Made by a program: the position numbers and the translations under genes. A stretch of 63,994 nucleotides of DNA, filler included, from Streblomastix strix (taxonomy: Eukaryota): the NCBI GenBank assembly GCA_008636045.1. It is 3 parts of 3 records of this genome, joined end to end, with 100 filler letters (N's around TTAATTAATTAA, not from the genome) between each part and the next. Parts side by side here need not be neighbours in the genome. Positions count along the whole stretch, not along the records: positions 1 to 21,852 come from SNRW01000349.1; 2 more parts are not named here. One strand, written 5' to 3'. The notes under the pieces are model-generated. The model did not search any database and had not been told where the DNA came from. It worked only from the letters and a program-made list of their open reading frames with translations. Positions 1,176-53,361 of the stretch are shown here, piece by piece. Every line of letters begins with the position of its first letter. The first letter of the stretch is position 1.

Positions 1176-1204
1176 CCAAATTATCTAATAGACATATCAA
1201 AAAG

Positions 1205-1375: not shown

Positions 1376-1588
1376 CTATATGATTAATGGTGTTCATTAC
1401 TAAAGTATTTGCGGCGCGGTGAAAACACAATATTTATGTACGTTTACGGATACAGCAAATGGTTTTAGTAAATCTGGACAAGTAATTATACCGTTAATCC
1501 TTATGATTTTCCTGTGTTACTAAAACCAAAGGTTCTGGCAACTGAATTGCTATTTAATTAATAAAAATAAATTTAAGAGGGAATTATC

Positions 1589-1792
1589 TCACTAATTAGC
1601 ATTAGATTTTTTATTTTTAAAATAAGCTTCAGATATACGTATTATGTCACGTACATGGTCTAACATAAAATATAGATTTGAAGCATATTTTTTCTTTGCT
1701 TCGGTATCTTTAATTTCATTATTAAGTTGTTAGTATTCTTATTGTAATTTTGGTTCTAGCTCTTTAAAATACTCATACATTTATTTGTCCAT
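1589..1792 (-). CDS. Small viral hypothetical protein (67 aa, helical)
   Basis: Open ATG-to-TGA frame in TAR=Gln code: MDKQMYEYFKELEPKLQQEY...; upstream TATTATTTTTGTTCC motif. Confidence 0.65.
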
Positions 1793-1818
1793 TTTAAATA
1801 GGGAACAAAAATAATAAT

Positions 1819-2025
1819 TCAAATAAATTTTGCCAAAATAATTATCATATGTAAATTTACTATCATTTCAAATATTATGTCCAATTCATTTTTTATTGAT
1901 TAAGTAACAATACTATCTGTTTAATCATAAAATTAACGATTGTCCAATTATTCTTTCAATATGTAATAATCATTTGTCATGGCATCATAAATACTTTCAA
2001 TTGATCTGAGATGATATGGATTCAT
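1819..2025 (-). CDS. Small viral hypothetical protein (68 aa)
   Basis: MNPYHLRSIESIYDAMTNDYY...; same upstream motif as the neighbouring gene. Confidence 0.6.
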
Positions 2026-2054
2026 TTTTAGTATAGGAACAAAAATAATAGTGT

Positions 2055-2700
2055 CAATATAAATCAAAATTAATATCTTTGTACTATTCTTCATACTTTA
2101 CAGGTTCTTCTTAACATTCTTGAGTAGCTTAAATTTATTCAATTTCTTATTCTTTTCGTGCTTTTGATTCTTTGGATTCTTTTGGTTCTTTTGGCTACTT
2201 ATATTGTTTTACTTTTTATTTATATTTCTCTATTTGTTTAACAGCATCTTAATGTTATTATCTAATAAATGAATTTTCAGTTCTCAATCAAATTAATTCC
2301 TCCAAATCAAGTTGCGGATAAGTATAATTAATTTATGGAGTTTTTAATGTTTTTATTATTCTTTTTCTAACTTGTTTCTTTAATGGTTTTTCTCTAACTT
2401 CGCTTATGGAATTGTCATCACTTTCATTTTATTCCTCTTATGGCTCATAAGATATAAAATCTTCATCTTCATCAAGTTATTTTTAAGGTTGTTTTTAAAC
2501 ATTTTTCTTTGGAGCTACCCCTCCTCTAGCTTATAACAATAACTTATTCTACTATGTTTAAGTTAATTTTTTTTAAGTGTCTTCTTTCCTTCGTCGAACA
2601 CTTTAATATCTTTATTAATTTGGATTATTTATCCAATGACAAAGTATTCAATATTTGTTTCATTCTCTATCATATTCTTTAATGCATGTTGTATGTCCAT
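2055..2700 (-). pseudogene. Acidic/basic low-complexity viral protein, frameshifted
   Basis: MDIQHALKNMIENETNIEYF...; frameshift in a poly-T run near 2570; EPKESKESK-type repeats. End approximate. Confidence 0.5.
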
Positions 2701-2777
2701 TTGAATATTTTTAAATAAAGAAAATGATAAAGGGCATAGAAAGAAACTCAATTCACATGTCAAAAACCAAAAAATAA

Positions 2778-3490
2778 ATGTCAGAGATTAAGCATAAAGG
2801 GCTTACGGATGAAGATAAAATAGGATTGCAATTGATCGATGATGCAATTAGTCGAATCAAGACAATGACTCAGATAGGTCTCGAACGAAGTGAAACCATT
2901 GACGATACATTAAAACCAAAAGAAAATCCAATTTAGACTGAAAATGAAATTATTCAAGTAACACCTGAATAATTGATCCTAACAGAATAAAAAATTACTA
3001 AATATAAGAGCAAATACAATAAAGATAAATATAAACAAATTGATAGAACAACTGCATAAGTATATCCTGAGGAAATAGTTAAAAATACTTATCTTTCTCA
3101 CTCTAAATTGCAGGTAATGAAATTCATTATCGATTGCCTATGGAAGACGGTAACAACAAGAAAAATAGGTGATGATTTTATATTCTCATCAGATAACTTC
3201 ATTAAACTTTGGTCTTTAATCACTTAAGAGAATAAAGATGATATTGAAATTGTACTAGAGGAACCATTAATGAGATCTCGTTCATGCATAGGCAAATCAT
3301 ATAAAAAGAAAGATCAAATAAGAGTAATGGATATTTTGATCAAAAATGTATCTGTTAAAGTACTAGACAATGTTCTCTATAATTCTATTGAGAAACTATA
3401 TCGTGTGAATTGTGATTTTGTTCGTTTATCTAATGTATCTGAAGTAGAGATTTCCAAAAATGATTTTAGAAATAATTAATTTAGCTGTCT
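2778..3490 (+). CDS. Conserved viral hypothetical protein (similar to 52707-53334)
   Basis: Continuous frame from ATG 2778 through track ORF 3270-3479 when TAA/TAG = Gln. The native stop is unclear. Confidence 0.7.
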
Positions 3491-3529
3491 ATTTTTTTTA
3501 CCATTTATTTATTTTTACCAATAACCAAA

Positions 3530-3976
3530 ATGCTTTCACAATCAGAAATCGTTAAATGTGAAATAATTATGCATCCTCAAATTAAAATAGCAAAGGAAAT
3601 TAACGTTGAACCAATATATAAATGTGGTGATGATTTCTATTAACGAACAGTAAATTAATATAATAAACCACACTATAAATTATTGAAACGTTATGGTAAT
3701 AATCCGAGTTATCCATAATAAATTTATATATTGATTGAGAGAAGAAATAATTAGCATATTGATGGTACAATTAAATAGTATATTTAATTGATGAAATAAC
3801 TTAAAGATAACACATCTAACTATCCAATACGAAACTTAAGTGAAGATGATGCAGTCAAATATCGTGAACTAAGATAAGCAGTTGAATAAATGTAAGCTCA
3901 AACAAAATATAATTAATATAATTAATTTGGGATTAAAAGTCTAGTTAATAGTATGTATTATTATGTTAATGAATGA
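3530..3976 (+). CDS. Viral hypothetical protein (148 aa)
   Basis: Open ATG-to-TGA frame MLSQSEIVKCEIIMHPQ...KSLVNSMYYYVNE*. Confidence 0.7.
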
Positions 3977-3981
3977 TCGTT

Positions 3982-4005
3982 GAAACCTTTGGTTTGAGCT
4001 CTGCT
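3982..4005 (+). repeat. 24-bp hairpin element, copy 1 (intergenic)
   Basis: GAAACCTTTGGTTTGAGCTCTGCT; related copies at 13264, 15167, 18515 and 19490. Confidence 0.85.
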
Positions 4006-4057
4006 AATCGTTTATGCTCAGAGAATCATAGATTCAATGATTATTTTTGTAATAAAA

Positions 4058-5053
4058 ATGGAATAATAATTAAGCGATTTAGATATAATTGATGAAGACG
4101 AATAGATTAATTAATAAGAATAGGTAATTAAATTAATAAAATAATGAGAAGAGTAATAAAAATAAATTAAAGAACGTAATACATTATTATAAGATATTGA
4201 TAATGAGATTATTAAGTACTTTAATTATTTAAGTTAATTCTTTAAGAATTCTATCGATTTTGTTAATTTACATACTGACTAGATTATTCGTGGAGTAAAG
4301 ACATTTTTATCACCAATCACTGCTGGCAATTTTATTAAATAAGGTGGAACAAGTAACTAAATTCTATTGACTAATGGTGAAACATTAGATGTAGGTGATT
4401 TTTTACCAAAACAATATCCTCATGCGCCTGGGTAATTGATTATTGAAACGAGTTATAGTATATTAGATTAGGGTATAAGATTAATGAAAAATAATGCGAA
4501 TTGGGATAGTTTTGTACTCACTGGCTGCAACATTGACCCTGCAAATAGAGATTGGGTACGGAAAGTTGGTTAAACTTCATCATAATTTAGAATCTAAAAA
4601 TAAGAAGATTAAACTTATGATTATAAGGGTCTAATTATTGATTTTGATTGTACTACTTTAAAATTTAATAACTAATTTATTGCACCAATATCAGCAAAAT
4701 CAGGAATTTTTCATGTGGGGGATTATGTCGTTGGGTTAAGCTAATGGTCTTTAGTTTTGCATAGCAGCGGTTTCGTTTATATTAGCGCATATCTTCATTG
4801 GACGTCATAAGGTGGTTCGACTTGTATACCCGTCACGGTTGGATACGTTGATGCTGAATTTATCCCCCATTTTTCTGACCGTGTAGCCATGTAACATTTA
4901 ACAGCACGATCTTAACAAATTACTTAATATTTTGACTGTGTAATCAATTAGTATGTGTAAGTTTTTATTAATTCCAATTCTCTTTCAATATTACCTTCTC
5001 CATTAAATGTGGAAATTAATGGTACGTTTTTTATTAATTTTGGTGTAAGCTGA
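4058..5053 (+). CDS. Fibre / receptor-binding protein 1 (phage tail-fibre-like); one internal TGA at 4145
   Basis: N-terminal coiled coil, module FVNLHTDQIIRGVKTF...FIKQGGTSNQILLTNG, and a beta-rich C-terminal head ending INGTFFINFGVS*. Confidence 0.75.
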
Positions 5054-5076
5054 TGATAAATTCAAAAATAAACAAA

Positions 5077-5202
5077 ATGAATTCGAATAATGAAACCATC
5101 ATCTATTCTCTTGAATAATTGAACATTAACTGGCACGAAATCTTTAAAGCTATTTGGGAAGCAGCAATTAAATATGTCTGCGATTCAAAGATATGTAGAT
5201 GA
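5077..5202 (+). CDS. Very small hypothetical protein (41 aa)
   Basis: MNSNNETIIYSLEQLNINWHEIFKAIWEAAIKYVCDSKICR*, preceded by AAAATG context. Confidence 0.4.
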
Positions 5203-5255
5203 AAAATATATTCGAAGATTCTAGACTCGAAGAGTATAATTTTATTTTTGTAAAT

Positions 5256-7240
5256 TCACTAACGTTAAATAACTCCTTTAGCAACTTCTCCAATGACATC
5301 AACATTTAGTACTTAAGGCATTGAACAATCATCAAATATGTTTCTAACAAACGCATCACACAAGTAATGCATCATTGGAGTAATAGATGCTTTAGTTGGG
5401 TTAGTATATGCTCTAGTTCCAATGAATTATTTGAAACCATTTTAGTTCTATGATGGATTTATATTAGTTGTATCAATAATTCCTTTAGTCAAACTTCCTT
5501 GCAAAATAACTACTACATTAGTTCTAGAACCTAGGTTTGAAGAGTTATATCCCCGCATAAATGAATCATCAGTAGTTAGTTTTCATGCAAGCATAAATTT
5601 GTTAGGACAAAGTGTTCTAATAGCTTTATTTCCACTATACAATGTTGTTAAATAGAATATATTAACTGGTTTATAAAAATTTTCAGGATCTATCCATCTA
5701 TAGAAATGGCTCTTATCATCAATATTCAAGGTTTCAAATGTAAGTGAATGATATAGATCTGATGGAGCACTAACAACATCTTAATCAACGAGGCAGTCAA
5801 ACATTTATCCATTAATTGTTTAATTTACTGACTTATATGGTTGTGGGATAACATTATTCTAATCAATATCAAGGTTTAGTCCTGAGAATAATACAGGGAA
5901 AAAACCACATTGGATATTAGGGCATAGCAAATGTCATAAATAATGCCTTTATGTTAGTGAATGACATAATGCTTTACATTGATCCACTATTTTTATCAAA
6001 TCCACTAAATGGAAAGTTTGATGATTATGTTCAAAAAATTTAAGTAGGAAAGTTAATTATTTTTTTGTTATTGAATCAAACCAATTATAGCTTCTTTATT
6101 TTAAATATTGAAGCATACATTCTATATCTCCAATACATCGAATTTAGCTGTCCCAATCTAACTAATTGAATTTTGTAGTATCTTATCAACAATAGCCGCA
6201 TTTTATATATATACAATTTTTACATTATATCTTTAATACGATAGACCATTAGCATTATATCCTGATAATAGATAAACAGTATCAGGTTTCTCAGGAGGAA
6301 TCATGTGATAAGCTAAATGATTATTTTAAATAGTATCATTTTTATTAAGCCAAATAACCTTCAAGTCTTATAAGAAATTTTATATCCATAATTGTAGATA
6401 TAATGTTGCATAATTACGAATAAGCACAGGGAATGAATTGAATATAAGATTTAGTTGGTTAAGATCAAGTACTCCACTAAATGTAATATCATTAGGAATT
6501 CTGTAATAAAATGGTGTTCCAACGGTGGCAGCAGCTGCATATCTATCTATTTCACAAAGTGGAATATCTATAAATACTCCACAATGACGTTTTCGTTCAA
6601 TTATACTTTCTAATTGAGATACGCTATCGCTATTTTTAGTGCGCAAATCACTAAGAGAATTTCCACTAATAACTGCTTATTCTCTTGCATAGATTGCAGA
6701 TCCCCATAGTGCTGTTGCATCATTCAATAGTTAGAATTAGTAGAATGGTCCACACGCAGTTGAGAAACCAATCCAAAATTATAGATGTTCTGATGATTCA
6801 ACCCCTTAAGCTGTTTTATCAAAATATCCTTATGACGCTTATGTCATATTGTCAGTCCAATCAGCTAACGGATTTTCTTTACCATTGAAATTAGTTCGTG
6901 CAATTAATTTTCCTGTAGTATTACAGTCTAAATATGTTTTATTTAATTATTTCGCTAATGTATTTGCTGGTATAGTAATTGTCCAATTTACCTTACAAGT
7001 TTATACCATTGAACATGCTGATTTTCCTCTTGCTCCTAATGGTGCTCTAGTATATTTAACTCCACTTGATGTTTGTTCAGTTATTGGAGAATGGAAAAAA
7101 TTTTGCTTTGATATTTCAAATGATTGTGAATGTATAGATAAAGTTTTTAGAACTTCTCCAAGTAACATATATCCACTAACATAACCAGGTTGTGCTATTT
7201 TTGCTAATTTTTCAAGATAATCACTGCATTTGAAAGACAT
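5256..7240 (-). pseudogene. Major capsid protein (double jelly-roll, metamonad Polinton type), several frameshifts
   Basis: ~660 codons, beta-rich. FWIGFSTACGPF...REQAVISGNSL...HCGVFIDIP...DLNQLNLIFNSFPVL resembles metamonad Maverick MCPs as I recall them. Size and genomic context fit. Confidence 0.75.
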
Positions 7241-7303
7241 TTCAATAAAACAAAAATTAATGAACTGAAGTCAAAGACTAAGCTTCGTTAATAGATGTTC
7301 ATG
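7241..7303 (-). promoter_or_regulatory. Upstream element shared by the MCP and penton genes
   Basis: The 21 nt before the ATG are 19/21 identical to those of the penton gene (18035-18055). A triloop hairpin and AGAT(G/C)TTCATG follow. Confidence 0.6.
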
Positions 7304-7327
7304 TTAAAAGTTTTCATAATAAATCAA

Positions 7328-7534
7328 ATGGGTGTCTTCTCTGGAATAACAAATTTTGGGTCGAAAATATTAGAAGGCGTTAAGAAAGCAGCATAATGGG
7401 TTGCATCAGCATTGCATAAAGTTTTGTCAACAATATCAGGTCCTGTTGGAATGATTCACCCTGGAATTGGAGGCGCATTAGGTGCAAGAGCTAATCTTGC
7501 AGGTGCTGTTGATCGTTTTGTAAATAAACGCTGA
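7328..7534 (+). CDS. 68-aa amphipathic protein resembling the adenovirus protein VI lytic helix; possible N-myristoylation
   Basis: MGVFSGITNFGSKILEGVKKAAQWVASALHKVLSTISGPVGMIHPGIGGALGARANLAGAVDRFVNKR*; intact frame. Confidence 0.75.
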
Positions 7535-7559
7535 TAAAGACCAATTTATTTTTATTAAA

Positions 7560-9782
7560 ATGAACAACACATTGTCTTAATAGTAAATCCGAACAGTTAG
7601 ATAACTTATCACTAACGATATAGCTTACTACATTCAATATTAAAAACGAGGTAATTCTAGTGGAGGAATGATGTCAAATGAAGAGTATCAATTATTCATA
7701 GATAATAACAATGCTTTAGTCTATGCTGCTAACAATTAAATCGTTGATGGAATTGCATCAGATTATGCATTAAAGATAGAACCTAATGGATTATTAACGA
7801 TAAAGAATTTGAAAGTGATTAATTTTGATTTTGTCGCTTAGATTAATTAGTTGATTAATTAAGTGAATTTACTATAACTATCAATTGGGACAACTGAATA
7901 GGATATCACTGACACAAAAAAATGATATTGATACCATTAATCAAGAACTATCAAGATAAACACATTTTCGAGGATATTATTTATTGAATACTGATATATA
8001 AAATTTACCTAAATCCGCTAATGGTGATTTTTCATTTAGTGCTGAAAGTAGGACAGTTCGGTTGTATGATTAAAATTGGTATAATAGCGGAGATATAGTT
8101 CCAGATCAAGTAACGCCTGCAAGTGATGAAACTTCATTATCTGATGGTACAGCAACTGCAGGAATTAGCACTGAATATTCACATGAAGATCAAGTAAATC
8201 CATTAAATATAACAATTACTATTCCACCTATTGATTCTGCTAGTGGATTTGTTGGTTCAACTAACTGTTATGCAAGAAACGATCATTCTCATCCTCTCAA
8301 TATAACAACTTCATTATCTCCGCAAGATTGTGCAAGTAAATCAGTTGGTACAGCTAATTATTATGCTAGATCCGATCATTCTCATCCAATTAACGTAGAA
8401 ACTAATGCTTCAAATATTACAATCGGTGATGGTGTTGGTGCTGATGGAACATCAGCTTTTTACGCTAGACAAGATCACGTTCGTCCATAGCAATTAACTT
8501 ATGATGAAAATGTTACTGCAACTAAATTTATTAAAACTGGTTGAACAAGTAACGATATATTGTTAGCAAATGGTGATACAAAAGTTATATCAGATATAGT
8601 GGGTGATCATTTACTGTAATAGACCCAGAATAATATGTTAAATTATGTACGTTTATAGCTTTAAATACTAGTCCAGATAATTCAATTGAATTCAAAGTAG
8701 CTACTAGAAGTGGATTTGGATAAATATAATTCAACTAACATTGGAATAATGGTATAGGTATAAATAACTATTAGTATAAATTTACTCCCTCATTAGCTTC
8801 TGGTTTTAATAGTGCATGGATCTTATATTTTGAAACAGGTTTAACTAGATATGGTGAATTATGGTGTCTATTAGATAGTTATTCTTCTAATAAAGTTATA
8901 TATTAAACTGATATAAGTGCTTTTTAGGGTAATATTACTGATATATTAACTACTAATTCATAATCAGCTTTACCTACAGACTATTCTATTTTAAATTAAT
9001 TATTTCCAAATTCATATGGTAGTATGTAAGTTAATCCAACTACTAATCAATTTAGTTAAGGAATAAGAATGTCATATTCTACCAATACTAATTATAGAGG
9101 AATATTTCTTGGTTATGATCCACTATCAACTACAGGATCATTACAAGATTAGAGGAACACAGTAAATACACCTGTTGGTTAATTTGTGATAGGAGTTAAT
9201 GATTAAATTACTGAGACAAATTAAGGATTAATGATATCAGCTGATGGAAACACATTAACTTTCAATAATAATTAATTCGTTGATTTAAACATTGATTAAA
9301 CAATTACTGGTAGAAAAACATTCGGAAAATTAAAATAAGTAATTCCATCAAATACTGGAGCATTTAACGAAGGGATAAAAATTAGTAGGCACCCGACCAA
9401 CTAATGGAGTAATATATAATTTGGCAGTGATCCAAATACAAATACTGGATGTATTGATAATTAATGGTTGATCGGAACATCAGGAAATGATGCGTAAAAT
9501 CCACTTGGCTTTATAATCGTTAAAGCAGGATAAGAAGGTTAGGCTAATAGAGGATTACAGATCAGTGCTGATGGAAATTCATTATCTTTCAATGGATAAG
9601 TTATTGTATGAAATGGTGCAAATAACGGTGCCACAGATGGGTCAGTTAATTATTCTGCAAGCAATACAATCCTATGGGGTGCAAATAGTCTTGGAACAGA
9701 TGGTGATTTCTATACCAATGGAACTACTGTATTCTGGAGAGCACATGCATTACAATTTGATCCGCACTACTAAGGATGTTGA
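7560..9782 (+). pseudogene. Long fibre protein 2 with YARxDHxHP repeats; two internal TGA (8542, 9609) and one frameshift (~8610)
   Basis: Four repeats (YSHEDQVNP, YARNDHSHP, YARSDHSHP, YARQDHVRP), a DQTITGRKTF module and two GL.ISADGN.L.FN modules. Confidence 0.8.
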
Positions 9783-9831
9783 GGATTTTTAATTCGCCAA
9801 TTCATACTTGGATAATTTATTTTTGAAATAA

Positions 9832-10230
9832 ATGGAAAAAGCTGTAACACAACCGATAAAAAAATTGTTTAATGAATTAGTTAAATAACACTTTTATGAA
9901 AACAATACTGTTAAAGTTACAATTGAAGCATTTTAAAATTTGTTAAAGAATGATATAAAAGAATCAATTCATCCATTACTCTAAAAATTAATGAGAATAA
10001 ATAAAATGTTCAAATAATCAGCAGCAGTAATTATAAAAATATAAAGAAAATGGTTGATGGAGAAGAATATGAAAATAAGTTATTTAATGAATAGTGTATA
10101 TACTTCAAAAATAAATACCTATTAATAAAAAGCCATTAGATATAAATAATTATCCATAACAAATAAAGAAGTACATTATCTCGGAAGCTAGTGAGGAAGA
10201 AAAATAGATTTACAATTAATTTGTGAATGA
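9832..10230 (+). pseudogene. Viral hypothetical protein, frameshifted
   Basis: MEKAVTQPIKKLFNELVKQHFYENNTVKV...; TTATTTTTG upstream motif. End approximate. Confidence 0.45.
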
Positions 10231-10250
10231 TGAGTAATACAGTAACTTTG

Positions 10251-10559
10251 TCAATTACTATTCTCTTCAGAAGGCATCTCTTAGTGGGGAATAATTTAAT
10301 CTAAAATAATTTGAATTTTAACCTGTTATATATATTCGATTATATCTTTAATTTTATCTTACAATGGATCGAGAGTACAAAAGTGAAAATGTTACAACCT
10401 CATATTATATCTACTTTTATCAGTTTGATTTAACTCAACCATAAATTTCCATGGAATTACTGTATTAGTGTTAAGAGCTTAAAATATTTTGAATTTCTCA
10501 TAATCAGATGCATCATACTTATCACCAATTGTTTTTGCTAAACTATACATCTCGTACAT
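10251..10559 (-). CDS. Viral hypothetical protein (102 aa)
   Basis: Open frame MYEMYSLAKTIGDKYDASDYEKF...EENSN*. Confidence 0.6.
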
Positions 10560-10570
10560 TTTATTATTTT

Positions 10571-10936
10571 TCAAAAAATTTTTTTATTTGGTTAATTTAA
10601 CATTTTAAGATACAAGATGTATCTCCAATGAGTTGCCAATTCCAAATCTTTATTAGATATTGCTTCATTCAAAAATGCTTCAATTAATTCTATAGATAGC
10701 TATGACCAATGTATGCGAGGTTAATTTTTATCCATTTTTTTGTAAAAGAATTGTATAATGTAAATAGTTATATTTAATGGGACCAATACTATATCGAAAT
10801 AACTCCATAATGTTTTAATTACATTAACTGTATCCATTAATTTATCAGGAATTGACATAGATATAATTGATGTTATAAAATTAACTCCATAGAACATGTA
10901 ATTCATTATTCCCATGATTATCGACAGTATGTTCAT
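10571..10936 (-). CDS. Putative membrane protein (121 aa)
   Basis: Track ORF 10721-10936 extends through TAA to TGA at 10571; two hydrophobic segments. Confidence 0.65.
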
Positions 10937-10952
10937 TTTATTATTTTTGAAA

Positions 10953-11973
10953 ATGACATTATAAGAATTATAAGATATAACGTTTACTAATCAAGATCTA
11001 TTGAACGAATATAAAACTAAGCCATTAACGAAGAATTCTTTGTTTCATGTTAATGACAATCATTATATTATTGGAGCTGTTGGAAGTGGTAAAACAACAT
11101 TAATGTGTAAGATAGTTGTGATATATAAGAAAATTATTGATCTATTTATATTGTACTTCTTGAATTACGGAGCAGATGAAACTATGGCATTAAACCTAAA
11201 CAGTAAGAACATTTAACTAATGAATGTAACTTATGGAGAAGCAATGATATTTCTACCTGAATTTTATAAGATAAAATACTCAACTAAGGAGATGTACATT
11301 TAGTACAAAAAGAATGAATAAAAATAATCTTATACTAGCGATTTCACTAGGCGAATGGAAGAATAAATTTTATAAGCTAATGAGATTAAAAAGAATGAAA
11401 AACTTAATGATTATCTTAATAGAATTGCTGAAATATTCAAATAAAAAGTAATCGGAACCATTAATAAATATAGTTAACCTACCAAGATATTGTGATTCGA
11501 TATCCCTGCACTAATTCAAAATGTTAGTTACTAAATGAAATTCAAAATTACGAAAGACGAATAAAATGCTGACTTAAAAAATAATTAAAATACCTATATT
11601 AGAATAAGCTTAATTACTCCATACATTAATGCTCTTCGATGATATTGGATCTAATGCAGATATCTAACGATTCAATTCTTAATTATCTAAAACAATAACA
11701 TGTCTCGTTAGTGATTCCCGTCATTCAAAAAATACTATTTTCTTTATCGCTTAACGTCCAACTTATTTGTTTAAAACAACGAGGATATTAACCCATGTAA
11801 TTTGCTTAGGCGTAAATCTTGGTTAAAGTGACCTAAGCTAAGTGTACAATGAAAATATTATATAAAATTTGGATTTTGATGGGTTCCAATTACTATACAA
11901 TACATTTAAGAAATATGAGTTTATCATACTGAATAAGTGGTTAAGGAAATTTGAGATTCTCAAAAATAAATGA
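10953..11973 (+). pseudogene. A32-like (FtsK-HerA) genome-packaging ATPase; one TGA (11493) and one frameshift
   Basis: Walker A IIGAVGSGKTT, Walker B LMLFDD, and the A32 signature SRHSKNTIFFIAQRPTYLFKTTR. Confidence 0.9.
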
Positions 11974-11999
11974 AAAATCAAGCTATTGAGTCATCGGAA

Positions 12000-14900
12000 A
12001 TGGCATTTTTGGTAAAAAAGTAATCCTTAGCAGTTAATCCATACATAAATAGACAGCATGATTGATTCTCTAATACTATAATTTTTGTATGAATTTCAGT
12101 GATTCCGTTTTTCTCAATTGATAATTAACTCATCTAATGATTCTTCTATCCCAATCTCATATTAGTGCATTTAGTTATCTTACCTTCATCAATGCAATCA
12201 GCAATCTAGTCTTTAATGATCTTATTAGTCTTTTAATTAACTCCTTTCAATTTTATTTTTGAACCATCGCAATAATTCTTGAAAATGATATAATTTTTAG
12301 GAGCTAATGCAATCGTTGATGGACCTTGTCGTTCTATTGCTAATCCAAGGATTTTCTTCTCATCATAAACGTCTTGTCTAATCGAAGGGATGAAATACTT
12401 AGCATTTTCATAATAAAATTCTCGATCATTAATTACAGCATTAAATTACTAAGTAAAATGTTCATTATGATTTCTACTAATTGCCCAATAAGCTGAATCA
12501 ATATCTCCTTCAATAAAATGTATCCTATTCATATCAAAGCATTTGCACATGAAGTTATATATGAAGTTTAGATACCAATATTTAGCATTATCTAATACAA
12601 AGAACGCCACTTATGAAGGAGTATTACAATTGCAATGCTCAGCATTCATTTATACAATATAGTTGTCTTCAGATATCTTTTGTTCGTCCATGAACGCATT
12701 AGATCTAATTGCTCTTTCTGTTTACTTCTTATTCATCATTTTAAATTTATGATATTTCTCTGTATTCATTCTATCAATACCATATGAGCTATTCGTAACT
12801 ATCTAAAAGAACTATCCTTTTCCTTTATTTTCATCTAATTTTGCAATAATTTTGTTTTTGTAAATTTTTTAATAAATGAATTGAATTAATCATGTTTATT
12901 GAACAGAATTGTCTATTTCATATCATCTATAATAAAATGACAATCAACAATTAAGAACCATAAATAATATGAATTAAATGCCATATATTCTCCCGCCGTT
13001 GATGATAGATTAGTCAACTTTCTTTATTTTTGATCAGTCCATATCTTAATATCTTTCATATGATTGAACATATAATATCCAATAGTTCTTTAATCAGTTG
13101 TGAATTCATAATTCTTTAGAATAGGGTAGAAGTTAATATAATAATTAAGGTAATTCTCATCAATGTGACGTTTAACTTCAGCAATGAATAATTAACCATC
13201 TTCTGTAAATCTCTTTTTGCTATTAATCATTCTTAATATAGTTTATTTTGAATGTTCAGTGTTAGCAGAGCTCAAACCTTCGGTTTCTCCAATAATCTTA
13301 CCTGTTTATGATCCACACATATACATTTTGCCTCCAGTATATTTTATAAATTTATGGGGATCAGATGACATAACACTAGGATATAAGGAATTAAAATCAA
13401 TTCCAACCACATGAGTTATTCTGTGATCAGTTATTAAAACTGCGACTTTCTTATTTTCTTTATCATACCATAATTATTTTATAAAATCAACTCCTGATAC
13501 ATTAACTCGATGCATTACATTTGATAATCCTCCTGTTATCCCCGATCTGATAAAATGATATACATCAATATATATTAAATTAGTTGGCAAACATCTTATC
13601 ATACAATATTTACGTAATTGTATGAATAATTATCCTATATTTTTGTCTTTATCCGAACAGAAGCAATTGCAATTTAAACAACAAGGTTGAACATTATCTT
13701 TTGAATGACCTTTTGAATTATCTATTCTGTCTAGAGTTGGTTTATTAGAAATTGTGAATTTACATCCACAAATGCTGCAATTGGAATCTTTGAATAATTA
13801 TTTGAAATATTCGAAATCACTATCTTATACATTATTTGTTGTGTATCTTTTTTTATGTTTATCTTACGATAGATATCCATTCACTTTACTTTACCAATAG
13901 TACTCTGTTAAATAAAATTTTTATGATTAATCTTCAAAATTAGGATATAATCCATTAATATTAAAATCCTTATAGGCTTTAGCATATTTGATAGCATTAG
14001 AGCATGCAGCCATACTCATAAAACTAAACATATCAATCTTATATTTAAATTGTAAGCTAATTAGAGTCATTAATGGCTTAACCATTATATATGTATCTTA
14101 TTCATTAAAGTATTGTAGATAATCCCATCTATTTTTAAATCGCTTTGCATCTTCTAGACAAATTTAATAATCCTTTTAACTAATTTTTGTCCTCTTTAAT
14201 GATGAATTGAAATATTCCATCGTAAACGGTTCTGATTTACTTAATACTTCATTAACGTTCTCGGTATTGAAAGATTCATAAGGAAATATCCCTTTCTTAT
14301 CATCGTAACCATCTCCAAAATCTTTTGCTGCTTACCTTAATTCCATAGGTTAAAGATATGTTAACATGTCAACAAATTTCACTTTCAAATTCAATTTTTT
14401 AAGATGTACTATAATTAACTTAGCTGTTGATGGGCTACCAGTATAATTAGTGATTGTCCAATCTTTACATTACATATATTATATAATTAATGACATATCA
14501 AATCTTGAGCTATTGAATCCTACTATTAGTACTTCAATTGAATAAGGAATTGTTTCATCAATGGTGCAGGCTTCTGTTATATATTAGTTGTCAGCATTAA
14601 CTTACTCAGCTTCTTTAAACAATTAATTTAGCCATTTCACTATAAAATCATCTCCATCCTATTAGTTAAAGAAGATTTTCTTAATCCCTTATTTGTTACG
14701 AATAGCTGCTGCAACTGATAAAGGAAAGTAGTTCATACATTTAATAACTTGATTTACCGAACTTTTTATTAACGCTTTTAGGAATTATTTCAAAATCATA
14801 TGTGATGATGTATTGCGTTGGTTTAAACTCATGTCATTTTCTATTTGCTTATAGATATTGATAAGTTTTATTCTACATAATGTGTGGAACAAATGGCTTT

Positions 14901-16530
14901 TAGATATAATCAAGTTTAACTTTCTTAACTATTTTTCCTTCGTTATTTTCACATTTAATAGTGAGTTTCTCATAGTCTCTTGAGCAATTTTTATCTTAAG
15001 GATTGAATGCTTTTGAGTTACAATGTGGGCAAAATTTCAATCCAGTTAATGCTTGTTTATTGGCTGTGGCAAATGCATGTGATATCTTATTCCCTTCATA
15101 AATAAATTCAACAACTAATATATCGATAGTCTTAATCTCTTAAAGTAAGATTGTTTTGTTTTCTTGAGCAGAGTTCAGACCTTCGGCATCTAACATTTCA
15201 TCTTTATATACTACTTTCATTCCTCTACAATAATTCTTATGTTCATTATCGTAATAGTAAATGTCTTAGTTAATTTTTAACTTTAATGATACTATATTAG
15301 CCTATTTAGTTATATCTAATCCATCAAATGTCTTTAATAAATCAGTCATTTTCTACTCTTTGAATCGAATAGTAGCTCTAATACTTAAATTAATGGTTGC
15401 TTGCTAATGCTAATAATTTCATTAGTACAATAATGTTTCTCCTTTGAATCAGGATGTAATGCTTTTGTTATTGCTTCCATATAGCAATTATTATTATTTC
15501 TTGTATTTTTATAAATAACATTTTTGCGACAATTACAATGAAAATCGATTAATTCTTTAATATTAGCTCCAAAAATTTATGGTTAAAAATTAAATGTTTT
15601 AATCATCATCGAATAGATAGCTATGTATCGTTACCTTATACTATCTAATGTATAATTCTGCATATTTACTATTGCAGATTGAATGTATTATTCATACTCA
15701 TCAATATCATCTTCAGATTATATAACTTTAGGAGCATGTTCTTGAATACGAGTATCTCTAGGTAATATATATCCTTAATCAACGTAAACTTAATCATTCT
15801 ATTCATATTTATATTCTTCGTAAATGACTCTAAAATTTAATTGAATCTTGAATGATTAATGATGTTATTCTTTATAAACTTTTTCAATAAACTACTCAAT
15901 ATTTGTTACTGATCTTATAATATTTTAGTAATGCAATTGGCTTAATTATCCATTTGGTTCTTCTTATTCTACTGTATGTTCACGATCAAATCCTTATCTT
16001 GCAGTATAAACTGTTGCCATAAATTATTCCATATTCTCAGGAAGAAAATATAAAAGAGTACCTGCGTCATTATCTATTTCTTTAGTGTCTTTTCCACTAA
16101 ACTAATTAATTCTATCTTTAATCTCTTTATTTTGCTTGGCAGTTATTTAGTATTGAAGATTCACCTCTTATTCTTCTTCCATTATTCTTCTAGCTTATTC
16201 TTACTCTTCTATGATATAATTAGTCCAGAAATCATTAGCTTATTATCACTCTTATTCTCTACGATATTCATATAAATCCTATTCATATTAATTCTATTTG
16301 AAATGTTAAACCAGATCTTTAGATTTGATAATTTACTGATTGTATTTATAAACTTATTTTAGATGAGTTTTCAAATCCTTGTTGTTATTTCTTCCTCTCT
16401 TCTTATAATTAATTTTGTCTAAATATTCATTGAGTTAATCTTTAAGTTAGTTTACCTTTAATGTATCATTAATGTTTTTGTTGTTGATTTTGAGTAGTTT
16501 AATTAGCTCATCTTTCTTTATGTATGATAT
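12000..16530 (-). pseudogene. polB: Protein-primed family B DNA polymerase: TP-like region, vOTU-like domain, Zn finger, exonuclease, HNH insert, polymerase; frameshifted
   Basis: TYDFE (Exo I), GFNSSRFD (Exo II, ~14510), KGIFPYE, DFNSLYPS (~13390), NSSYG (~12787), GDIDS (~12500; canonical DTD). The start codon appears mutated; ends approximate. Confidence 0.95.
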
Positions 16531-16565
16531 TTTGCTTAAAATAAAAAATAATTTATTTGGACATA

Positions 16566-18034
16566 TCAATAAAATTATATCTCGAGAAGTAAATTATTAT
16601 ACATATCCATATATTGCATTGGTATCTTTCTTCCAAAATTATCGTATAATGTAAAAACTAACGATTTGTTCTATCTCACAAGGCATTATTGACTCATCAT
16701 ATTCTATCCCCATAATACTGGTGCATCAACCAAATTCTATTTGAAACATAGGTTCGAGAATCCATTACCTCCAGTTTATTATAGAGTTATTCATAATAAT
16801 TAATTAGATACGCAAATTATAAGCATTCATGGATACTCTAGAAAATTCCCGATATATGGACAGAATATTGGAAGATCAACATCTAAGCTTTCATTATCAT
16901 GTTTAGTTTAATAGAACCACACTTCGAGATCAATTTATTTAATAGCTGCTGACAAATTAACTAAACAATTGGCTCCATTTACGTTCTATCCATCATATAG
17001 ATCTTATCCACCAACTAATTGTACGTATAGATTTGGAGATAAAAGTATATGATTAGAAAACCAATAAACATTATTTTACTAACAATATTCAGTTACAACT
17101 TATGGAATGAGTTTTCCATAGTAATTTGTTCTTCCAACAGCAGTATAAATATTTTACCATTCAACAGTACTAAATGCTGGTAATGAATTGATAATTCTTA
17201 CTTGAAATGTGCAATATAATTGATAATTTATTACATTGTTAATTGTTATTCATTAATTGGTTAAGAGTCAGATGTAGTAACTGTTCCATTAGCATTTATA
17301 TCAACTTACTTACCAAAAAGATATCTTATTGATAATCTATTACCTTATGTAAAATGTTTAGGTTCAATTGATGTTATGTAGTTATTTGATGTTGGAGAAT
17401 ATAATCGTATTAATTCAATCATTCGATATAGCTCATTAACTGTAGTATCTAAAATCCAATAATGATAGAGAAATGCATCAATTCTAAGGTTAATAGAATT
17501 GATTGCTGAATTCACTAAATCTTATCCATAATTCTAGTTTAATGAGAACATATTATTTTATAATTTTTATACATACTCGTTAATTGCATTATTAAAGCAT
17601 ATTGCTCCACTATTCAAAGTTGATTAAGTCCTAAAATTTTTCTCAATTGTATCTGTAAAATTATCATATTATGTCAGTGTTAGGAATAGTAATTATGGAG
17701 TATATTTATATCTTTATATTGTTTGATCACTATTATAAGCATTATTAATTGCTGTATTCAAACTGATACGTAATGGTGGTAATCTATCCAGCAATTAGCA
17801 ATGAAACTGATCCTCTCCAACTTACTATTAGAAATAAATTTTCCTTGAATCAGTTGATACTGTATTATGCTATATTTCTATGTAATCATTGTTCAAATAA
17901 GATGTCAAATAAATTAGAATGTTATTGATACTATTAACTTAAAAGCTTTAACTGCCTCTAGGGATAGTCGTTTACTATGTTACGAAATCCTTATCTGAAT
18001 GAGAGTTGATAATTTGAAAGCCGATGTTAGTCAT
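16566..18034 (-). pseudogene. Minor capsid (penton) protein, frameshifted
   Basis: N-terminus ...SFQVNSINNI...NDYIEI and C-terminus LVFTLYDNFGRKIPM...LLLEIQFY* fit the penton single jelly-roll pattern (L.D..G..I). Confidence 0.7.
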
Positions 18035-18094
18035 TTCATTAAAACAAAAATAAATCCAAAGGAATCCGAGCAAAGCTTGGCGGATCGAAGATCT

Positions 18095-18319
18095 TCATGC
18101 TCTTTCATTTAAATATTATATCAATTTCATTATTGCAGATTGACTATTCTCAGATGCTATTCATACAATATCTTTTAACTGTTCCATTTTAAGACGTTTA
18201 TTGTATTATCTTAATATAAATCTCAATTCTATCTCGGGATCATTCTTAGTTGCTCGTGATATAACTTAACTTAAAAACGCTGAGTAAGTCATAAATTCAT
18301 CACAATTTATTTTTGTCAT
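18095..18319 (-). CDS. Small viral hypothetical protein with one internal TGA
   Basis: MTKINCDEFMTYSAFLSQVISRATKNDPEIELRFILRQY... Confidence 0.5.
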
Positions 18320-18478
18320 ACTTTTAATCTAGAAAAATAATTTCATTTCAACAAAATAATTATTAACAAAATGCTTGAAATGATAATCATAATGTCCCAA
18401 CATATTGGCTTACATTTAATAGGTTATTATTTTGTTTCCATTTGTTTATTACTAAAATACTAATTATCTATAATTAAA

Positions 18479-19554
18479 ATGTCAAAACGTGAAACTTAAA
18501 AAGGTAAATTAGTTGAGACCGTAGGTCTGAGCTCCGCTAAAACAAAACGACCCAAAGGACAACCTAAGAATAAATCAACTGCAAATAATGTAAACGAATA
18601 TTTGAAATTAAAGAAACCTTTCACACATTTAGGGCAAACTGTTAATCCCTTAAATATAGCAAAAGTTCCATAAATTTTATTGAATTTAGGAAAATATGAG
18701 TAAACATAAGGTAGAATGAAATAATCTGATTATTCAGCTTTATTAAGATAGGTACATCAAATAGATAATAGTGTTTCAGCTTATGAAGCTGATGTTGGAA
18801 TTCAAGGATTAAAAGGCACTGTTAGAAGAGAAAGAATATATGGATCTTTTGACCCAACAGGATTAGTTGCTGATGCTATTTAAACATAATAATTGGTGTA
18901 GAAAATTTTGGCACCATAATAATTATAATCATTATAAGAAGCCAATTTCAATCATAATTTAAACATCAATGATCGATTAGATTAACCATCATAACGAGGA
19001 CCAAGTAATATTGGACCATCAGCCCCTGATCATAGTATAGATGAAAGTGATGATGAAAGAATGGAATTATTTGGAGGATATAATCGTTACTAAATATAAC
19101 CATAATAAGATTTAAATCCTTACTCTCAAAATACAGATTAATAAATTGATTTTGCTTCATAAATTGATGCAACATAGGAAGATATCGAAGATGAAAAGGA
19201 GGAGGTTTAAGAAGAATAAGAGCATGAAGAAGATATTGTCCAAACAAATAGAGAATTATAATATGTAAGAGGATTAAATTGGGGATAAGAACCAGTGAAT
19301 CCTCACTATAATAAAAGACCATTTGCATAAATAATCGATTTTAGCTATAGAGAAATCGATTAATGATTATCAATATATGCAAAAAAATAACATATGACGG
19401 AGGAGGAATTAGTAAACTAACCAAAAAAGTAGAAAAAATATATATCAAATAAAGAATTGAAGAGTACATTAAAAACATAATAAAAACTTAGCGGAGATCA
19501 AACCAAAGGTTTCAAAAAATAAATTAGACGATAATCACACAAGAAATGAAATGA
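18479..19554 (+). pseudogene. Viral hypothetical protein with basic N-terminus (possible core protein), frameshifted
   Basis: MSKRETQKGKLV[ETVGLSSA]KTKRPKGQPK...; contains two copies of the 24-bp element. End approximate. Confidence 0.55.
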
Positions 19555-19806
19555 TCAGAGATTGGGATCTTCAATTATTTGAGAAATTTATTCTAAAATA
19601 TCATCTGATATTATTGTTTTATTAAATATATACATTATTCTCGATTACTAAATAGAGAGTTATTCTTTAAATTATTTTTACTTTAAACGTTACCTCTTCT
19701 TAGCTTCACCACGTTATTTCTTAGCCATTTCTTACGCTTCCTATTCAGTAAAATATTTCTTTGTTCTTCCAACTTTTTAAGTTTGTTTTAAGTTTTCTGT
19801 GTCCAT
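19555..19806 (-). CDS. Small basic putative DNA-binding protein (83 aa)
   Basis: MDTENLKQTQKVGRTKKYFTEQEAQEMAKKQRGEAKKRQR...: a GRxKKY motif followed by a basic helix. Confidence 0.65.
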
Positions 19807-19826
19807 TTATTTATCTAGAAAAAATA

Positions 19827-20990
19827 TCAAACTAATTTGAAAATTTACTTATATTTATCTTTTAATGTTTCAATATTGTTTGCAACCTTATGAATATAAT
19901 AAATTGGTACTTCAACAATCTTAATATCATTATATGGTTTCAACAGTTCACAAAGAACATTTCCATGCTCATTTTTTATAAAAGTTGCTATTTCATTAAA
20001 TTATCTTCGTTATTTCTCAAATCCGTGTGCTGTCTTTTTCAAATCAAGATGAATAGTTATTATATTACCTTTCTTTAGATCCTATAGATTATCCTTATAC
20101 TGTAATTCCTTTGCATCAGCTAATTCCTTAATTTTTTATCTAATAAATATTCCTTCTAAATCTTCATTATCATTTACTTATTTAGGAGAGAATTTCTTTT
20201 TAAATGCTGCGTGTATTGTGTTATTTAAATCATAAACAACTTATTATAATTTTTTATTATTTGCCAATAGTTAAGAATCATTTTCAAACGCATTCCTTAT
20301 CGTTCTAACTACCGAATCAGCTACTCTATTTTTATTAACGAAAGGAGATGAATTATAGAAATAATTTATGTCATTTTCTTTTAAATAATCCTTAATTTAT
20401 TTACTTCCCAAAGCTGATTCACCATCTGATCTAATGTTACTAACAAGTTAATTAGATTTTAATTATTTAATATACTTCAATAATTCATTTGCTGATTTAT
20501 CTTTAATTGAATAAACTTCTAAATGTTTAGTTTTAATATTAATACAAAATAGAAATTATTGAATTACTTTATTAATTGTTGGGTGCATTATAAATATAAT
20601 ATCAATTTCCAAGCATCATAATTCTGGAGAGAAGTATGGACGTTAATACTTCTTTAATAGTTTCAATTTAATGTCTTGTACTATATCAAATTTATCTTTA
20701 ACTTTACTTCTAAATGGATTCTTAATTCTTTATGGTTCTTTTTAAACATTTGTTTTTTAAGGCTTTACGTTTGATTTTATTCGTTCAGCATGATACTTTT
20801 AAAAATTATCAAGAAAAATCTTATACCACTAAGAAATAGTTTTATCTTCGAACTATTCCTCCAAATTATTGATGTTGAATTACTTTTTAAATACAAAATT
20901 CATATTCATAATGAAATCCGCTAATTTAAATTTATCAACTTTGAACGCTTTATCATCTATAAATTATATAATTTATTTTTAAACAGCTGA
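19827..20990 (-). pseudogene. Retroviral-like (RVE) integrase; internal TGA at 20616 and a frameshift
   Basis: RPYFSP...EIDI (D ~20602), FLFCINI.TKHLEVYSIKDKS, IRSDGE (D ~20425), NRVADSVVRTIRN (D ~20317). Start approximate. Confidence 0.9.
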
Positions 20991-21511
20991 ACGATAAAAA
21001 TAAAGGGAGAGGAATTTTGCGGTGATTGTGAGTTTATCTGACAAATTAGTTCATGTTATTTTACGTCTAAGAGTTGCTGCTATATTTCGGATACAAATCT
21101 AAATTTCATACCACATTCTATACACAAGATATGCACCAAATAAATAAAGATCGTTCTACACCTTTACATTCTATTTATTTTTCTATTTTTATTGTCGTAT
21201 TTGTTGTATACATACAAATATAGTACAATTTTATTTATATTCGCATACATTAATACTATTTTCGCTAAAGAAAAATATGCCAATCAGTAATTACCGCGTC
21301 ACTCACACCAGACAATTTTTTGACCATTTCCTATTGTTTACAATTATATATAAGATGCTCAAGTGCACTTTTTTATCACGGTATTTTTAGATTATTTCTT
21401 TTCGCTGGCACTATGCTTCACGAAATTCGCTTTGTTTAAAAAAATATTATTTTCATACACATTTGGATTAACACTTATATTTCTTTATTTTTTAATTCAG
21501 AAACAATTTTT

Positions 21512-21852: not shown

Positions 21853-21952
21853 NNNNNNNNNNNNNNNNNNNNNNNNNNNNNNNNNNNNNNNNNNNNTTAA
21901 TTAATTAANNNNNNNNNNNNNNNNNNNNNNNNNNNNNNNNNNNNNNNNNNNN
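21853..21952. other. Artificial contig spacer
   Basis: N-run with a central TTAATTAATTAA, 100 nt. Confidence 0.97.
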
Positions 21953-24900
21953 CATAAACAGCAAATGCAGATACAGAAGAATAGTGTTAATGCAATAATG
22001 ACAACCAAAACAATGATCATTATCAACCACCAAGGGAATTTAGATCTTTAATTAACATCAATTATTAATAGAAGAGATTATCCAATCATTCCATCAATTC
22101 CAGTGAAGATCTTTCCATCATTAGATGTCAATATACCATATTACTTATTATTAGGATCAAACCAAGATTATGAATCATTTAATGTAAAATATGCTTTCTG
22201 ATCAGTTTAAGGATCTCCTTCAATAATAATTGCATCAGTACTTCCATCTTCAGGAGGATAAATCATTTCATTTGATATATCATTTTATTATCTATTATAT
22301 TCTTAATTCTTTATTTGAAGTAACAATTATGTAAAGATGGTATTATTAATCTCATTATTTACCTATATAATCTCAAATATCTTTACTCTTAGACTTCCTT
22401 ATATCATATTTGATCCTTCAAGTGTGAATTTGAATACTTTCGGATTCTTATTGTTTATATTAACACTTGCTTTGATTAATATGGTTATTTAGCTCCAAAA
22501 ATACTAAAGGAATTGATTATGTTGGAGAATATATTCTGGAGTTAATTAATTGAATTAGTTTTTATCAACATTTATTCCTTCAAGTTAATTTAAATCTGAA
22601 TTGATATCACTATAATTGCCCTTTATATATTCACCGAGTTATCCATATTGACATATTTCTTTTAATTAACTCATTACAATAAATATACTCTAACCTCCAT
22701 TTACTGCAGAATTATTATATATCTTCATTCCATGCAAATCAATTGCTTATTACGATGGAATATAATCTCCAGATCCAGTAAGGAAGATTGCTCCACCAAA
22801 TCCATTTGGAGAAGTTTAGGAAGATGATAGTGCTTAACATTCATGGAATTATGCATCTTGAATATTAAAGATTGGATTTGTATTAAAGTCAATATCTATA
22901 CTTATAGCTCCACCATTTCCATTATTACAAATGCATTTATAGAATTCGCATGAATCATTAATCTTCAATGAGCTTCCTGATTTCAATTATGCATTAATTG
23001 CTGCTCCATTTCCAATTCCTGATTATTAAATGTTTGAAAATGTTATGGTTATTAATTCAATAAAAGATTTGACAGATTCGGATTTGATTAATAATGAGCT
23101 CATATTATTATTGAGTTTATAATCTTATATTGATGTCTTTTTCATTATTAAATTTCCTCCATTGATCGAAATTATCGAGTGATATAGAATAATAGATGGA
23201 TTTGCAGATTTAAACTCGCAATCAGTAATAATTATATTTGCAGTTGAAGAAATACTATTTGCAGTTTCAGATATTAGTGGATTAGTGGCTAATGAAGGAA
23301 GATTATCAAATTTAAGTCCATACAATTCAAGATAACCAATATTTTCTACTTTGAAGAGGGAATTAGTATTTGTGGTTGTTGATGTTATAATAGATTATTT
23401 TGTATATACATTTGAAGTTTGGTATTAATCGGCTTTAATAGAAATATGATTTCCTATATTTGTGTTCTAATTAATTAAAAGACTATTTTCAAGTGAAGTT
23501 CCACTTTGTAATATTATATTAATAATTACACTACCTATAGGATAATTAGTAATTGCTGCCTTTTCAATATTTAAAATATATCCAATAGTTTAACAAGGAT
23601 TTATATTCGTTCCACAATCATCATTATTATTCTATGCAGAATGAATATAATAAGGATCTTTATATGTGATTGATGGAAGAATTACTGAACATTAATAGAA
23701 AAGTGGACAATGATTAGTTATTGGCTCTTTACCATCAATAACTTTAGATTTATCAATTCCCATAAAGTTGATTTTTTATTCTTCAGATGTAAGAATAGTG
23801 TCATTAACTTTAAGAAGTGATTTAGATGTTATGTTTGATCCAGTATCTTAAGTGTTTATAGATTCAATATGTATATAATTACCAGATTAAACTATAGATT
23901 AGCATCTTGTAAATATAAGATCAATCAAATAGAAATTGGAAGATGTAAGATCTGAAGCAGTAACTAAAGTTTGAATGAAGATCGATCCACCCCAACCAAA
24001 TGATCCTGATGAACCAGAAGTTGTTTTACAATCTGTGAAAGTAGAATTGTTAATCAAGATTACTGATGAAGTACTTTCTTGAATAATAGCCAATGCTCCT
24101 CCATTCCCAGGTTGATTGCAAGAACAGGATGTGAATTATGAATTTTAAATGTTTAATTCTCCATTATTTATTGATGAATATATAGCACCACCTGATCCTC
24201 CACTTTAGCAGTTCTGGAATTAAACATTATTATCTATTAATAATTTCATATCATCATTTACTTCAACAAAGATGGCACCTCCTTATGAGGACTAACAATC
24301 AATGAATTTGGAATTGGATATAAGGATTTAGCCATTATTAGAAATATTGAGAAATAATGCTCCACCAAATGTTGTATAACTCTTGCATTATATGAAGTTA
24401 ATATTTTGAAGTTCTAATCGCCCATCTTAACCCAATTCAGCATAAATAATACCATGATCATTGGTATATGCACTCTATTTAATATCAAGATATAAAAACA
24501 AAGCATTTCCATCTATTTTAAACTAACCATCATTATTATCAATATCGATTTCACTTTGAGTAGTACTATCATTATTAGCGTTTCTAAATGTCCTTGGTGA
24601 GATCGTTTAATAAACATACAATTGAGATGAAAGAGTTGTTTTATCTACAACATACACAATGTAAGTAGATGTAACATGCGCATTACGTTTTATATTATTA
24701 GCATCAAGCGTTTTACATGGAATTGAGAATAAACATCCATTTGTATCACGTCCATCTTGTTTAACATAAAATAATACTGCAGAAACATCACTAAATTAAA
24801 CGTAGCTATTTATAATAAGAATAATGAACAGCATATTCATTAAATTATAATGTTTTTAGCTTGGTTTCTTAAAATCATTCTTCTAATTGATTCTGAATAA

Positions 24901-32930: not shown

Positions 32931-32963
32931 ATTATATCAATTAAACCACTTTTGCATCATAAA

Positions 32964-53334: not shown

Positions 53335-53361
53335 AGGTTCTATATTATGTTTGATAATTAA

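Follow-up and report, generated by a model that had tools for sequence, protein, structure and literature searches.

Introduction

How palindromic micro-elements without an enzyme of their own are moved, among them yeast GC clusters, fungal double-hairpins and Rickettsia repeats, is a long-standing question. Here we describe a 24-base element (the 24-mer) in Streblomastix strix DNA (assembly GCA_008636045.1), inserted in and beside genes of a decayed Polinton/Maverick-like virus; the whole stretch analysed, 63,994 nucleotides with filler, is called the window. The yeast mitochondrial clusters GC42 and GC18 are short, palindromic, non-coding mobile units of patchy presence, with variable loops and conserved stems, which merge and nest and whose mobiliser is described as unknown (PMC4478555); the GC42 positions listed in that source are intergenic or intronic, with duplication of AG. 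Double-hairpin elements of optional presence have been reported from the mitochondria of Allomyces (cited in PMC7218506). The palindromic elements of Rickettsia lie in frame in conserved proteins, where they are tolerated, and measure 105-146 bp with terminal inverted repeats (PMC2229807), while Magnusiomyces genes hold many short block inserts that break the reading frame and are skipped by ribosomes (PMC5009743).

The 24-mer shares with GC clusters and double hairpins a palindrome with variable loops and conserved stems and, at the protein level, presence or absence at many sites. It differs from the GC clusters in being 24 bases long, in making no real duplication and in lying in frame in core genes of a nuclear-integrating DNA virus, a Polinton-like virus read with nuclear code 6 rather than a mitochondrial genome. 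Like the Rickettsia elements it stands in frame within conserved proteins, but it has no terminal repeat and is one sixth of their size, and unlike the Magnusiomyces inserts it keeps the frame and would be translated. Paquin's Allomyces elements of 2000 are said to have longer, GC-rich stems. The 24-mer departs from the GC clusters, the Allomyces elements and the Rickettsia elements in at least one defining character each.

A folded single-strand substrate, a one-strand join and little need for target sequence are typical of IS200/IS605 and REP elements. Integron attC x attI recombination likewise joins one strand of a folded substrate, and replication resolves the product (PMC3458562). Integron cassettes, IS200/IS605 and REP differ from the 24-mer in their much larger substrates and in depending on a dedicated enzyme, either a tyrosine recombinase or one of the HUH type. 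The literature that we covered, in which subscription journals were thinly represented and supplements not included, held no report of such inserts in Polintons, Mavericks, Streblomastix or viruses. Trichomonas repeat libraries could hold such units unnamed.

A 24-base unit at filled and empty sites in viral genes

The 24-mer is very probably a mobile insertion. All five copies listed in the first-pass annotation were recovered where, and on the strands on which, it had placed them, with the true ends one base further 3' and one more base ambiguous (Table 1). At up to three mismatches the 24-mer pattern matched the window five times and none of 100 dinucleotide shuffles, and a profile scan yielded no sixth copy: the five scored 36-41 bits, the next match 17.7 and the best shuffle 14.2. 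The unit reads A-RACC-NNN-GGTY-T-G-AGC-TCY-GCT-A and is inserted at G^A without a real duplication. At the protein junctions D becomes E…N and E becomes E…K, so the G belongs to the target and the last A to the element; these junction residues do not support the TT|AA context proposed before.

Sibling proteins were collected by homologue searches and cluster look-ups, and the evidence for filled and empty sites of the 24-mer family is at the protein level. Insertions were scored against the reference P0082 over 188 sequences of at least 72% identity and 63,664 aligned residues, window pieces included. The comparisons with siblings bore out the expectation of clean, in-frame sites of 8 residues: all four coding copies are 8-residue insertions missing from nearly all sibling proteins. 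Copy 2 (PolB site 909) is filled in 1/52 close sequences covering the site, namely the window alone, and copy 3 is an 8-residue insertion relative to P0082 and P0135, with related and nested inserts nearby in siblings. The empty allele of copy 4, KPV-E-TK, occurs in P0480, and this site is also filled in P0119 and empty in P0122; copy 5 is missing from 13/13 siblings spanning its site.

Two PolB sites that are empty in the window are filled elsewhere, site 567 as DFG-ETYGLSSA-NGYDD in 1/49 motif matches and site 694 as FD-ESVGLSYA-NN in 1/44 covering sequences. The C-terminal end of PolB reads SY-ETGGLSSA-K once, against eight SYE ends, and a third, N-terminal site in the family of the 18479 gene (Table 1) is filled in 2/19. 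Separate contigs have filled sites at the same position (P0117 and P0452; P0116 and P0119), and at seven sites or more the ends agree to the single base. Each insertion is of exactly 8 residues, D to E…N, with at most one base of ambiguity, which leaves no target-site duplication of two bases or more, and the ends ARACC and GCTA are not complementary and form no terminal inverted repeat.

A miniature inverted-repeat transposable element or other class II cut-and-paste element was rejected on the absence of terminal inverted repeats and of a target duplication of at least 2 bases. Helitrons are defined by a 5' TC, a 3' CTRR and insertion at A^T; here CTAA can be read as an end, yet a 5' TC is missing and GA is followed by any of the four bases (T, C, A, G). 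The GT…AG ends of a spliceosomal intron or introner are absent on both strands of the 24-mer, and Rfam gave no match in window 1-21852 at gathering scores.

The unit consists of two abutting hairpins

Two abutting triloop hairpins span the whole 24-mer. DNA folding placed a second hairpin, AGC-TCY-GCT, one base from the first, ARACC-NNN-GGTYT; this second hairpin, overlooked in the first-pass annotation, is the chief mechanistic clue. When circularised, the unit forms a dumbbell with nine pairing positions and a single junction mismatch, G·A. Of the five copies, three are paired at 8/9 positions of the circle, one at 7 and one at 6, and pairing at 8/9 was matched by 0-2/500 shuffles and by 13/2,826 sampled virus 24-mers. 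The first loop is GNA in 3/5 copies and TTT/AAA in 2/5. Triloop hairpins in general are not enriched in the virus (12 vs 9.2); those with GNA loops number 4 vs 0.6 (max 4), two of the four being 24-mer copies.

More triloop hairpins, some of them paired, lie between virus genes at window 18067-18096, 7262-7290, 5210-5235 and 1524-1534. They may represent sister inserts, or else promoters or terminators native to the virus.

Reading frame and position in the proteins

The G^A targets in the virus coding DNA of the window are distributed 306/141/156 over the sense frames and 126/97/123 over the antisense frames. Eight of nine coding sites used the first frame, against an expected share of 0.39 (p about 0.003), and the favoured frames yield small residues. 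An AlphaFold model of the sibling PolB P0079 built from an alignment reached a predicted local distance difference test (pLDDT) score of 73.7, whereas a single-sequence PolB fold reached 29; a sequence search retrieved no solved structure. The sibling model matched phi29 polymerase (E 2.6e-15), and its fold is phi29-like. In this model the three mappable sites of the family are in coil; over all families the loop preference is weak. Frame use and position suggest that the 24-mer entered while the genes were still functional.

Distribution of the element

The element had been thought specific to this virus, which we can no longer maintain: its family is present in many of the virus copies of Streblomastix, and another Maverick carries a unit of like design. 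The further observation of no copies outside the virus held for the ~42 kb of the two other contigs of the window, which contain other virus-like genes; its scope is these contigs and short host flanks. A host surface-protein family, sampled through 150 representatives with 114,114 residues (of nine checked for origin, eight were from S. strix and one from Blattamonas), gave no frame-1 match within one mismatch. Virus proteins gave seven such matches in 75,468 residues; as the protein of the window itself is among them and two sites are shared, they stand for about five events. One host protein matched the frame-2 pattern with at most one mismatch, in a motif common to its paralogues.

Scans for the 24-mer pattern gave no match in viral contigs and none in prokaryote genomes. 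Three metagenome matches lay in DNA of 47-55% GC, one of them in a bacterial integrase-like open reading frame (ORF), and were judged to be chance, as was one match in a phage record (E 5, chance level). Scans of viral contigs for related loci returned nothing useful, with one weak locus, L008.

Double hairpins of similar design

A PolB-alignment scan of prokaryote genome bins yielded four contigs, which are probably misbinned protist virus DNA. L004, a related Maverick-like contig binned with a bacterial genome, carries a 33-base unit in three copies, in which a triloop hairpin of seven pairs adjoins a tetraloop hairpin of five, with one junction mismatch. This unit shows two different compensatory changes, and its circle pairing reaches 12/13 in one copy and 10/13 in two further copies, each found in 0/400 shuffles. 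One unit, together with a second, unrelated 33-base double hairpin, lengthens a PolB loop by 22 residues, the very amount by which this loop is shorter in 8 aligned homologues; the loop is also filled in P0040. Two copies stand in tandem and in frame in another ORF, and the junctions are ambiguous by one base (G) or by three (TGA repeat). A scan of viral contigs for the L004 repeat pattern gave no match.

Other inserts of 6-11 residues in S. strix PolBs are found repeatedly, at different sites, or covary (NKVAAEG twice; TSNAGGINA with TNSVGGINA; nested IIEDS-type inserts). Seven of nine even-length inserts, two of which belong to the 24-mer family, are fully codon-pairable as dumbbells; among the controls this held for 0.2-14% of windows from PolB and for 5-34% of peptides matched in composition. 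The peptides taken for sister inserts include NKVAAEGS, TFGGTVGA, T[N/S]x[V/A]GGINA, TNKVGGNGIA, CTAGTG and IIEDSxSKG. As a negative control we used RKMYICGLQT, an insert formed by local tandem duplication. When 14 T. vaginalis Maverick PolBs were compared with P0107, one site passed from empty to +7 to +19 residues, and the nested peptide recurred at a second PolB site. At the peptide level, these data suggest that Streblomastix has sister insert families and that Mavericks of Trichomonas have nested inserts; that hairpins would lie behind the Trichomonas inserts is a guess.

The T. vaginalis proteins P0101, P0104, P0106, P0107 and P0108 contain nested in-frame micro-insertions at two sites, and P0104 has a 3-residue remnant that resembles an excision footprint. 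Two adjacent double hairpins at window 33283-33341, in an acidic tail after a second PolB fragment, are possible sister elements in another virus family.

Proposed movement as a folded single strand

Presence or absence at many sites, a fixed length, no real duplication and two abutting hairpins were observed directly. Beyond this, we give roughly even chances to the view that the 24-mer is a non-coding, non-autonomous micro-element that moves as a folded single strand, nicked or as a closed dumbbell, is joined through one strand and becomes fixed by replication. Strand displacement by the phi29-like polymerase would expose single strands on which the unit folds. Since the polymerase is phi29-like, long single strands are expected; they are established for this class of polymerase. 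A filled strand paired with an empty strand would form a four-way junction with two capped arms, and a branch-cutting nuclease acting at the arm bases, together with a ligase, would free a dumbbell. The reverse one-strand join at G^A would then put the dumbbell in, and replication would sort filled and empty daughters, much as replication resolves the one-strand exchange of folded integron DNA (PMC3458562). The survivors in a gene-dense virus would be units of length 3n, read as small Gly/Ser/Thr/Ala linkers in tolerant loops.

The cutter could be the endonuclease-VII-like domain of the polymerase, whose fold we take to be that of a junction resolvase, or a host structure-specific nuclease. 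Such nuclease domains have also been treated as homing-endonuclease insertions (PMC11161782). Spread by the integrase, as first suggested, is unlikely, because the absence of terminal inverted repeats and of a real duplication (4-6 bases) is evidence against it.

Several results weigh against movement as a folded single strand. All PolBs inspected conserve the nuclease domain, with Arg in place of the usual catalytic His; L005 and L006 have it too, although they showed no insert and, among the repeats listed, no repeated hairpin family. No HUH enzyme, tyrosine recombinase or transposase was found in the scanned virus ORFs with profiles that also missed the capsid and the integrase. No free circle or intermediate was observed, and any abutting hairpin pair resembles a dumbbell on paper. 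The stem covariation reported in the first-pass annotation came down to one two-sided change, with 48/500 shuffles scoring as high. Folding energies of the copies were no better than those of shuffles (z -1.3 to +1.6); standard parameters miss the stability of mini-hairpins, and only GNA loops passed the test described in PMC13037366. A generic dumbbell scan barely set the virus apart (15 vs a shuffle mean of 8, max 12). The frame count excluded the P0015 and P0439 copies, which lie in other frames; with P0015 included, p is ~0.01 by hand. Over all insert families, 10/14 sites were in coil vs 46% (p about 0.05, weak). A looser peptide test placed 7/16 inserts at the control level, and both peptide dumbbell tests were post hoc, devised after the data had been seen, and concern peptides only.

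A broader proposal, tentative and rather doubtful, is that 18-36-base dumbbells defined by shape and free of fixed sequence parasitise metamonad Mavericks, moving as closed, hairpin-capped mini-duplexes by way of the virus polymerase-nuclease fusion.

Alternative explanations

A stalled viral polymerase could instead hop to a folded copy, read both hairpins and return through 1-3 bases of microhomology, with the hairpin bases setting the ends. We hold such template switching to be unlikely, though a serious candidate. The junction ambiguity (one base, A, in the 24-mer family; G or TGA in L004) would suit it, as would the existence of nested and partial inserts and the lack of a dedicated enzyme in scans of the virus ORFs. 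However, template switching usually gives looser ends than those of the 24-mer, which are base-identical at seven or more sites, and for a few sister peptides the best pairing spans the junction, as would suit a circle (peptide level only).

The hairpins might also be functional viral signals that protect single strands or direct priming, packaging or termination, and be maintained or amplified by selection instead of being selfish; we consider this improbable. Mini-hairpins with GNA loops withstand 3' exonuclease and are found at the origins of phages and at N4 promoters (PMC13037366), and two virus genes (7269, 18083) have hairpins upstream. However, each site is filled in only ~2-10% of siblings, both orientations are found, unrelated sequences occupy the same loops, and 2/5 loops are TTT/AAA rather than GNA.

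It is very improbable that host end-joining captured nuclease-resistant small DNA or cDNA hairpins at breaks, mostly after integration. The minimal target, the absence of duplication and the decay of the window copy are in keeping with such capture, and dinoflagellate Polinton introners are reported to have been gained mostly after integration (10.1101/2025.03.18.643946). However, capture would leave ragged ends, whereas all four coding copies are in frame and use two codon-aligned frames (p about 0.03); nor does it accord with the absence of copies from the ~42 kb of other contigs (p about 0.003) and of frame-1 matches within one mismatch from the host-family residues.

We give very little credence to the view that the 24-mer is what a larger HUH transposon left behind, as a footprint or as a remnant of one end (a Helitron 3' end, or IS200/IS605-like). 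A hairpin ~12 bases ahead of CTAA is like a Helitron 3' end, and insertion without duplication suits HUH chemistry, but both the 5' TC and the A^T target are missing, no terminal sequence is common to L004 and the sister families, and the window holds no larger element and no single half. A library or assembly artefact, whether an adapter or an amplification chimera, can be discounted almost entirely: the assembly comes from single-cell material (by the title of a paper cited in PMC10120064), but the copies vary in loop and stem and keep the frame, same-site copies occur on separate contigs (the P0117/P0452 and P0116/P0119 pairs), and an unrelated data set (L004) contains the like design.

Implications

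The 24-mer and the 33-base units are likely to be among the smallest mobile DNAs. A ~20-kb virus of few genes, hundreds of sibling copies, junctions sharp to one base and a minimal 24-base substrate mean that a single polymerase and a synthetic oligonucleotide would suffice for a direct test of the question of movement. Mobile DNA can carry parasites of its own that are smaller than repeat finders report, and inserts of the 24-mer type add residues to viral polymerases. If the proposed dumbbell class were real, it would comprise the smallest mobile elements known and would supply a steady flow of new protein loops in virus-like DNA, which accounts for roughly one third of the genome of Trichomonas vaginalis.

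The carrier virus and other features of the window

The window joins three contigs through N-flanked TTAATTAATTAA linkers at 21853-21952 and 43793-43892, so features on either side of a linker are not genomic neighbours. Under translation table 1 a single ORF of at least 80 residues opens in the first 30 kb, and genes open under table 6; Metamonada-group endogenous viruses that use the host code are known in S. strix (PMC10120064). Window bases ~1,200-21,000 are a decayed Polinton/Maverick-like virus, with the protein-primed PolB of that group split into four pieces in this copy (Table 1). Carrier terminal inverted repeats were not found among the longest inverted repeats listed for this decayed copy.

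Table 1. Copies of the 24-mer, genes of the carrier virus and the L004 units (window coordinates, except for L004)
Feature	Position	Strand	Remarks
24-mer copy 1, loop TTT	3983..4006	+	immediately after the stop codon of ORF 3530-3976; probably outside coding sequence; G at 3982 is the target
24-mer copy 2, loop GAA	13263..13286	-	in pPolB; G-D becomes G-ETEGLSSA-N; coil in structure model
24-mer copy 3, loop GAA, decayed (6/9 pairs)	15166..15189	-	variable N-terminal part of pPolB, DAEGLNSA
24-mer copy 4, loop GTA	18516..18539	+	in 18479 gene; V-E becomes V-ETVGLSSA-K
24-mer copy 5, loop TTT	19489..19512	-	antisense, in frame (SGDQTKGF), C-terminal frame of 18479 gene
Protein-primed DNA polymerase gene (pPolB)	11978..16245	-	four frameshifted pieces; 82% to S. 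strix KAA6374147.1
Endonuclease-VII-like zinc/HNH domain within pPolB	13655..13785 (ends approximate)	-	motif LDRIDN; phrog_1035, E 6.5e-12 on sibling P0082
Virus gene without assigned function (18479 gene)	18479..19549	+	~344 aa in siblings; premature stop 19364-19366 here; contains copies 4 and 5
Putative retroviral-type integrase, in pieces	19827..20909	-	labelled by inspection and recall; no match in Pfam and NCBIfam, weak in PHROGs
Putative major capsid protein, in pieces	5256..7240	-	from size and position; no profile match
Putative packaging ATPase, in pieces	10713..11973	+	Walker A GAVGSGKTT; weak Pfam AAA_29, E 0.0076
ORF	2757-3479		no annotation
ORF	3530-3973		no annotation
L004 33-base double hairpins, two families	2356-2388, 2401-2433, 5013-5078 (in L004)		

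In the S. strix PolBs P0139, P0215, P0395, P0399 and P0470, about residue 904 is joined to about residue 1150 (GSQT to DMNRIHF), a common internal deletion of ~250 residues that may mark a defective lineage. A short repeat, ACTAATCCACA, stands in three copies at window 1200-1388, near the presumed left end of the virus.

Two primase-helicase-like genes (window 34661-36052 and 48205-50568; PHROGs DNA primase, Pfam DUF5906), with fibre-like repeat ORFs (53347-55982) and a Fic domain (51933-53327) near them, suggest other endogenous viruses in the window that are without the 24-mer. The second PolB fragment, a distant one, lies at 31763-33502. A large host surface-protein family is represented at 21953-25350 and by P0245, and one member has a NEK kinase annotation. 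Long inverted repeats occur in AT-rich DNA (59223-60050; 27669-28623; 50865-51525 with 58192-58973); they are possibly ends of non-autonomous transposons, and a DDE_1 transposase fragment is found at 62815-63579.

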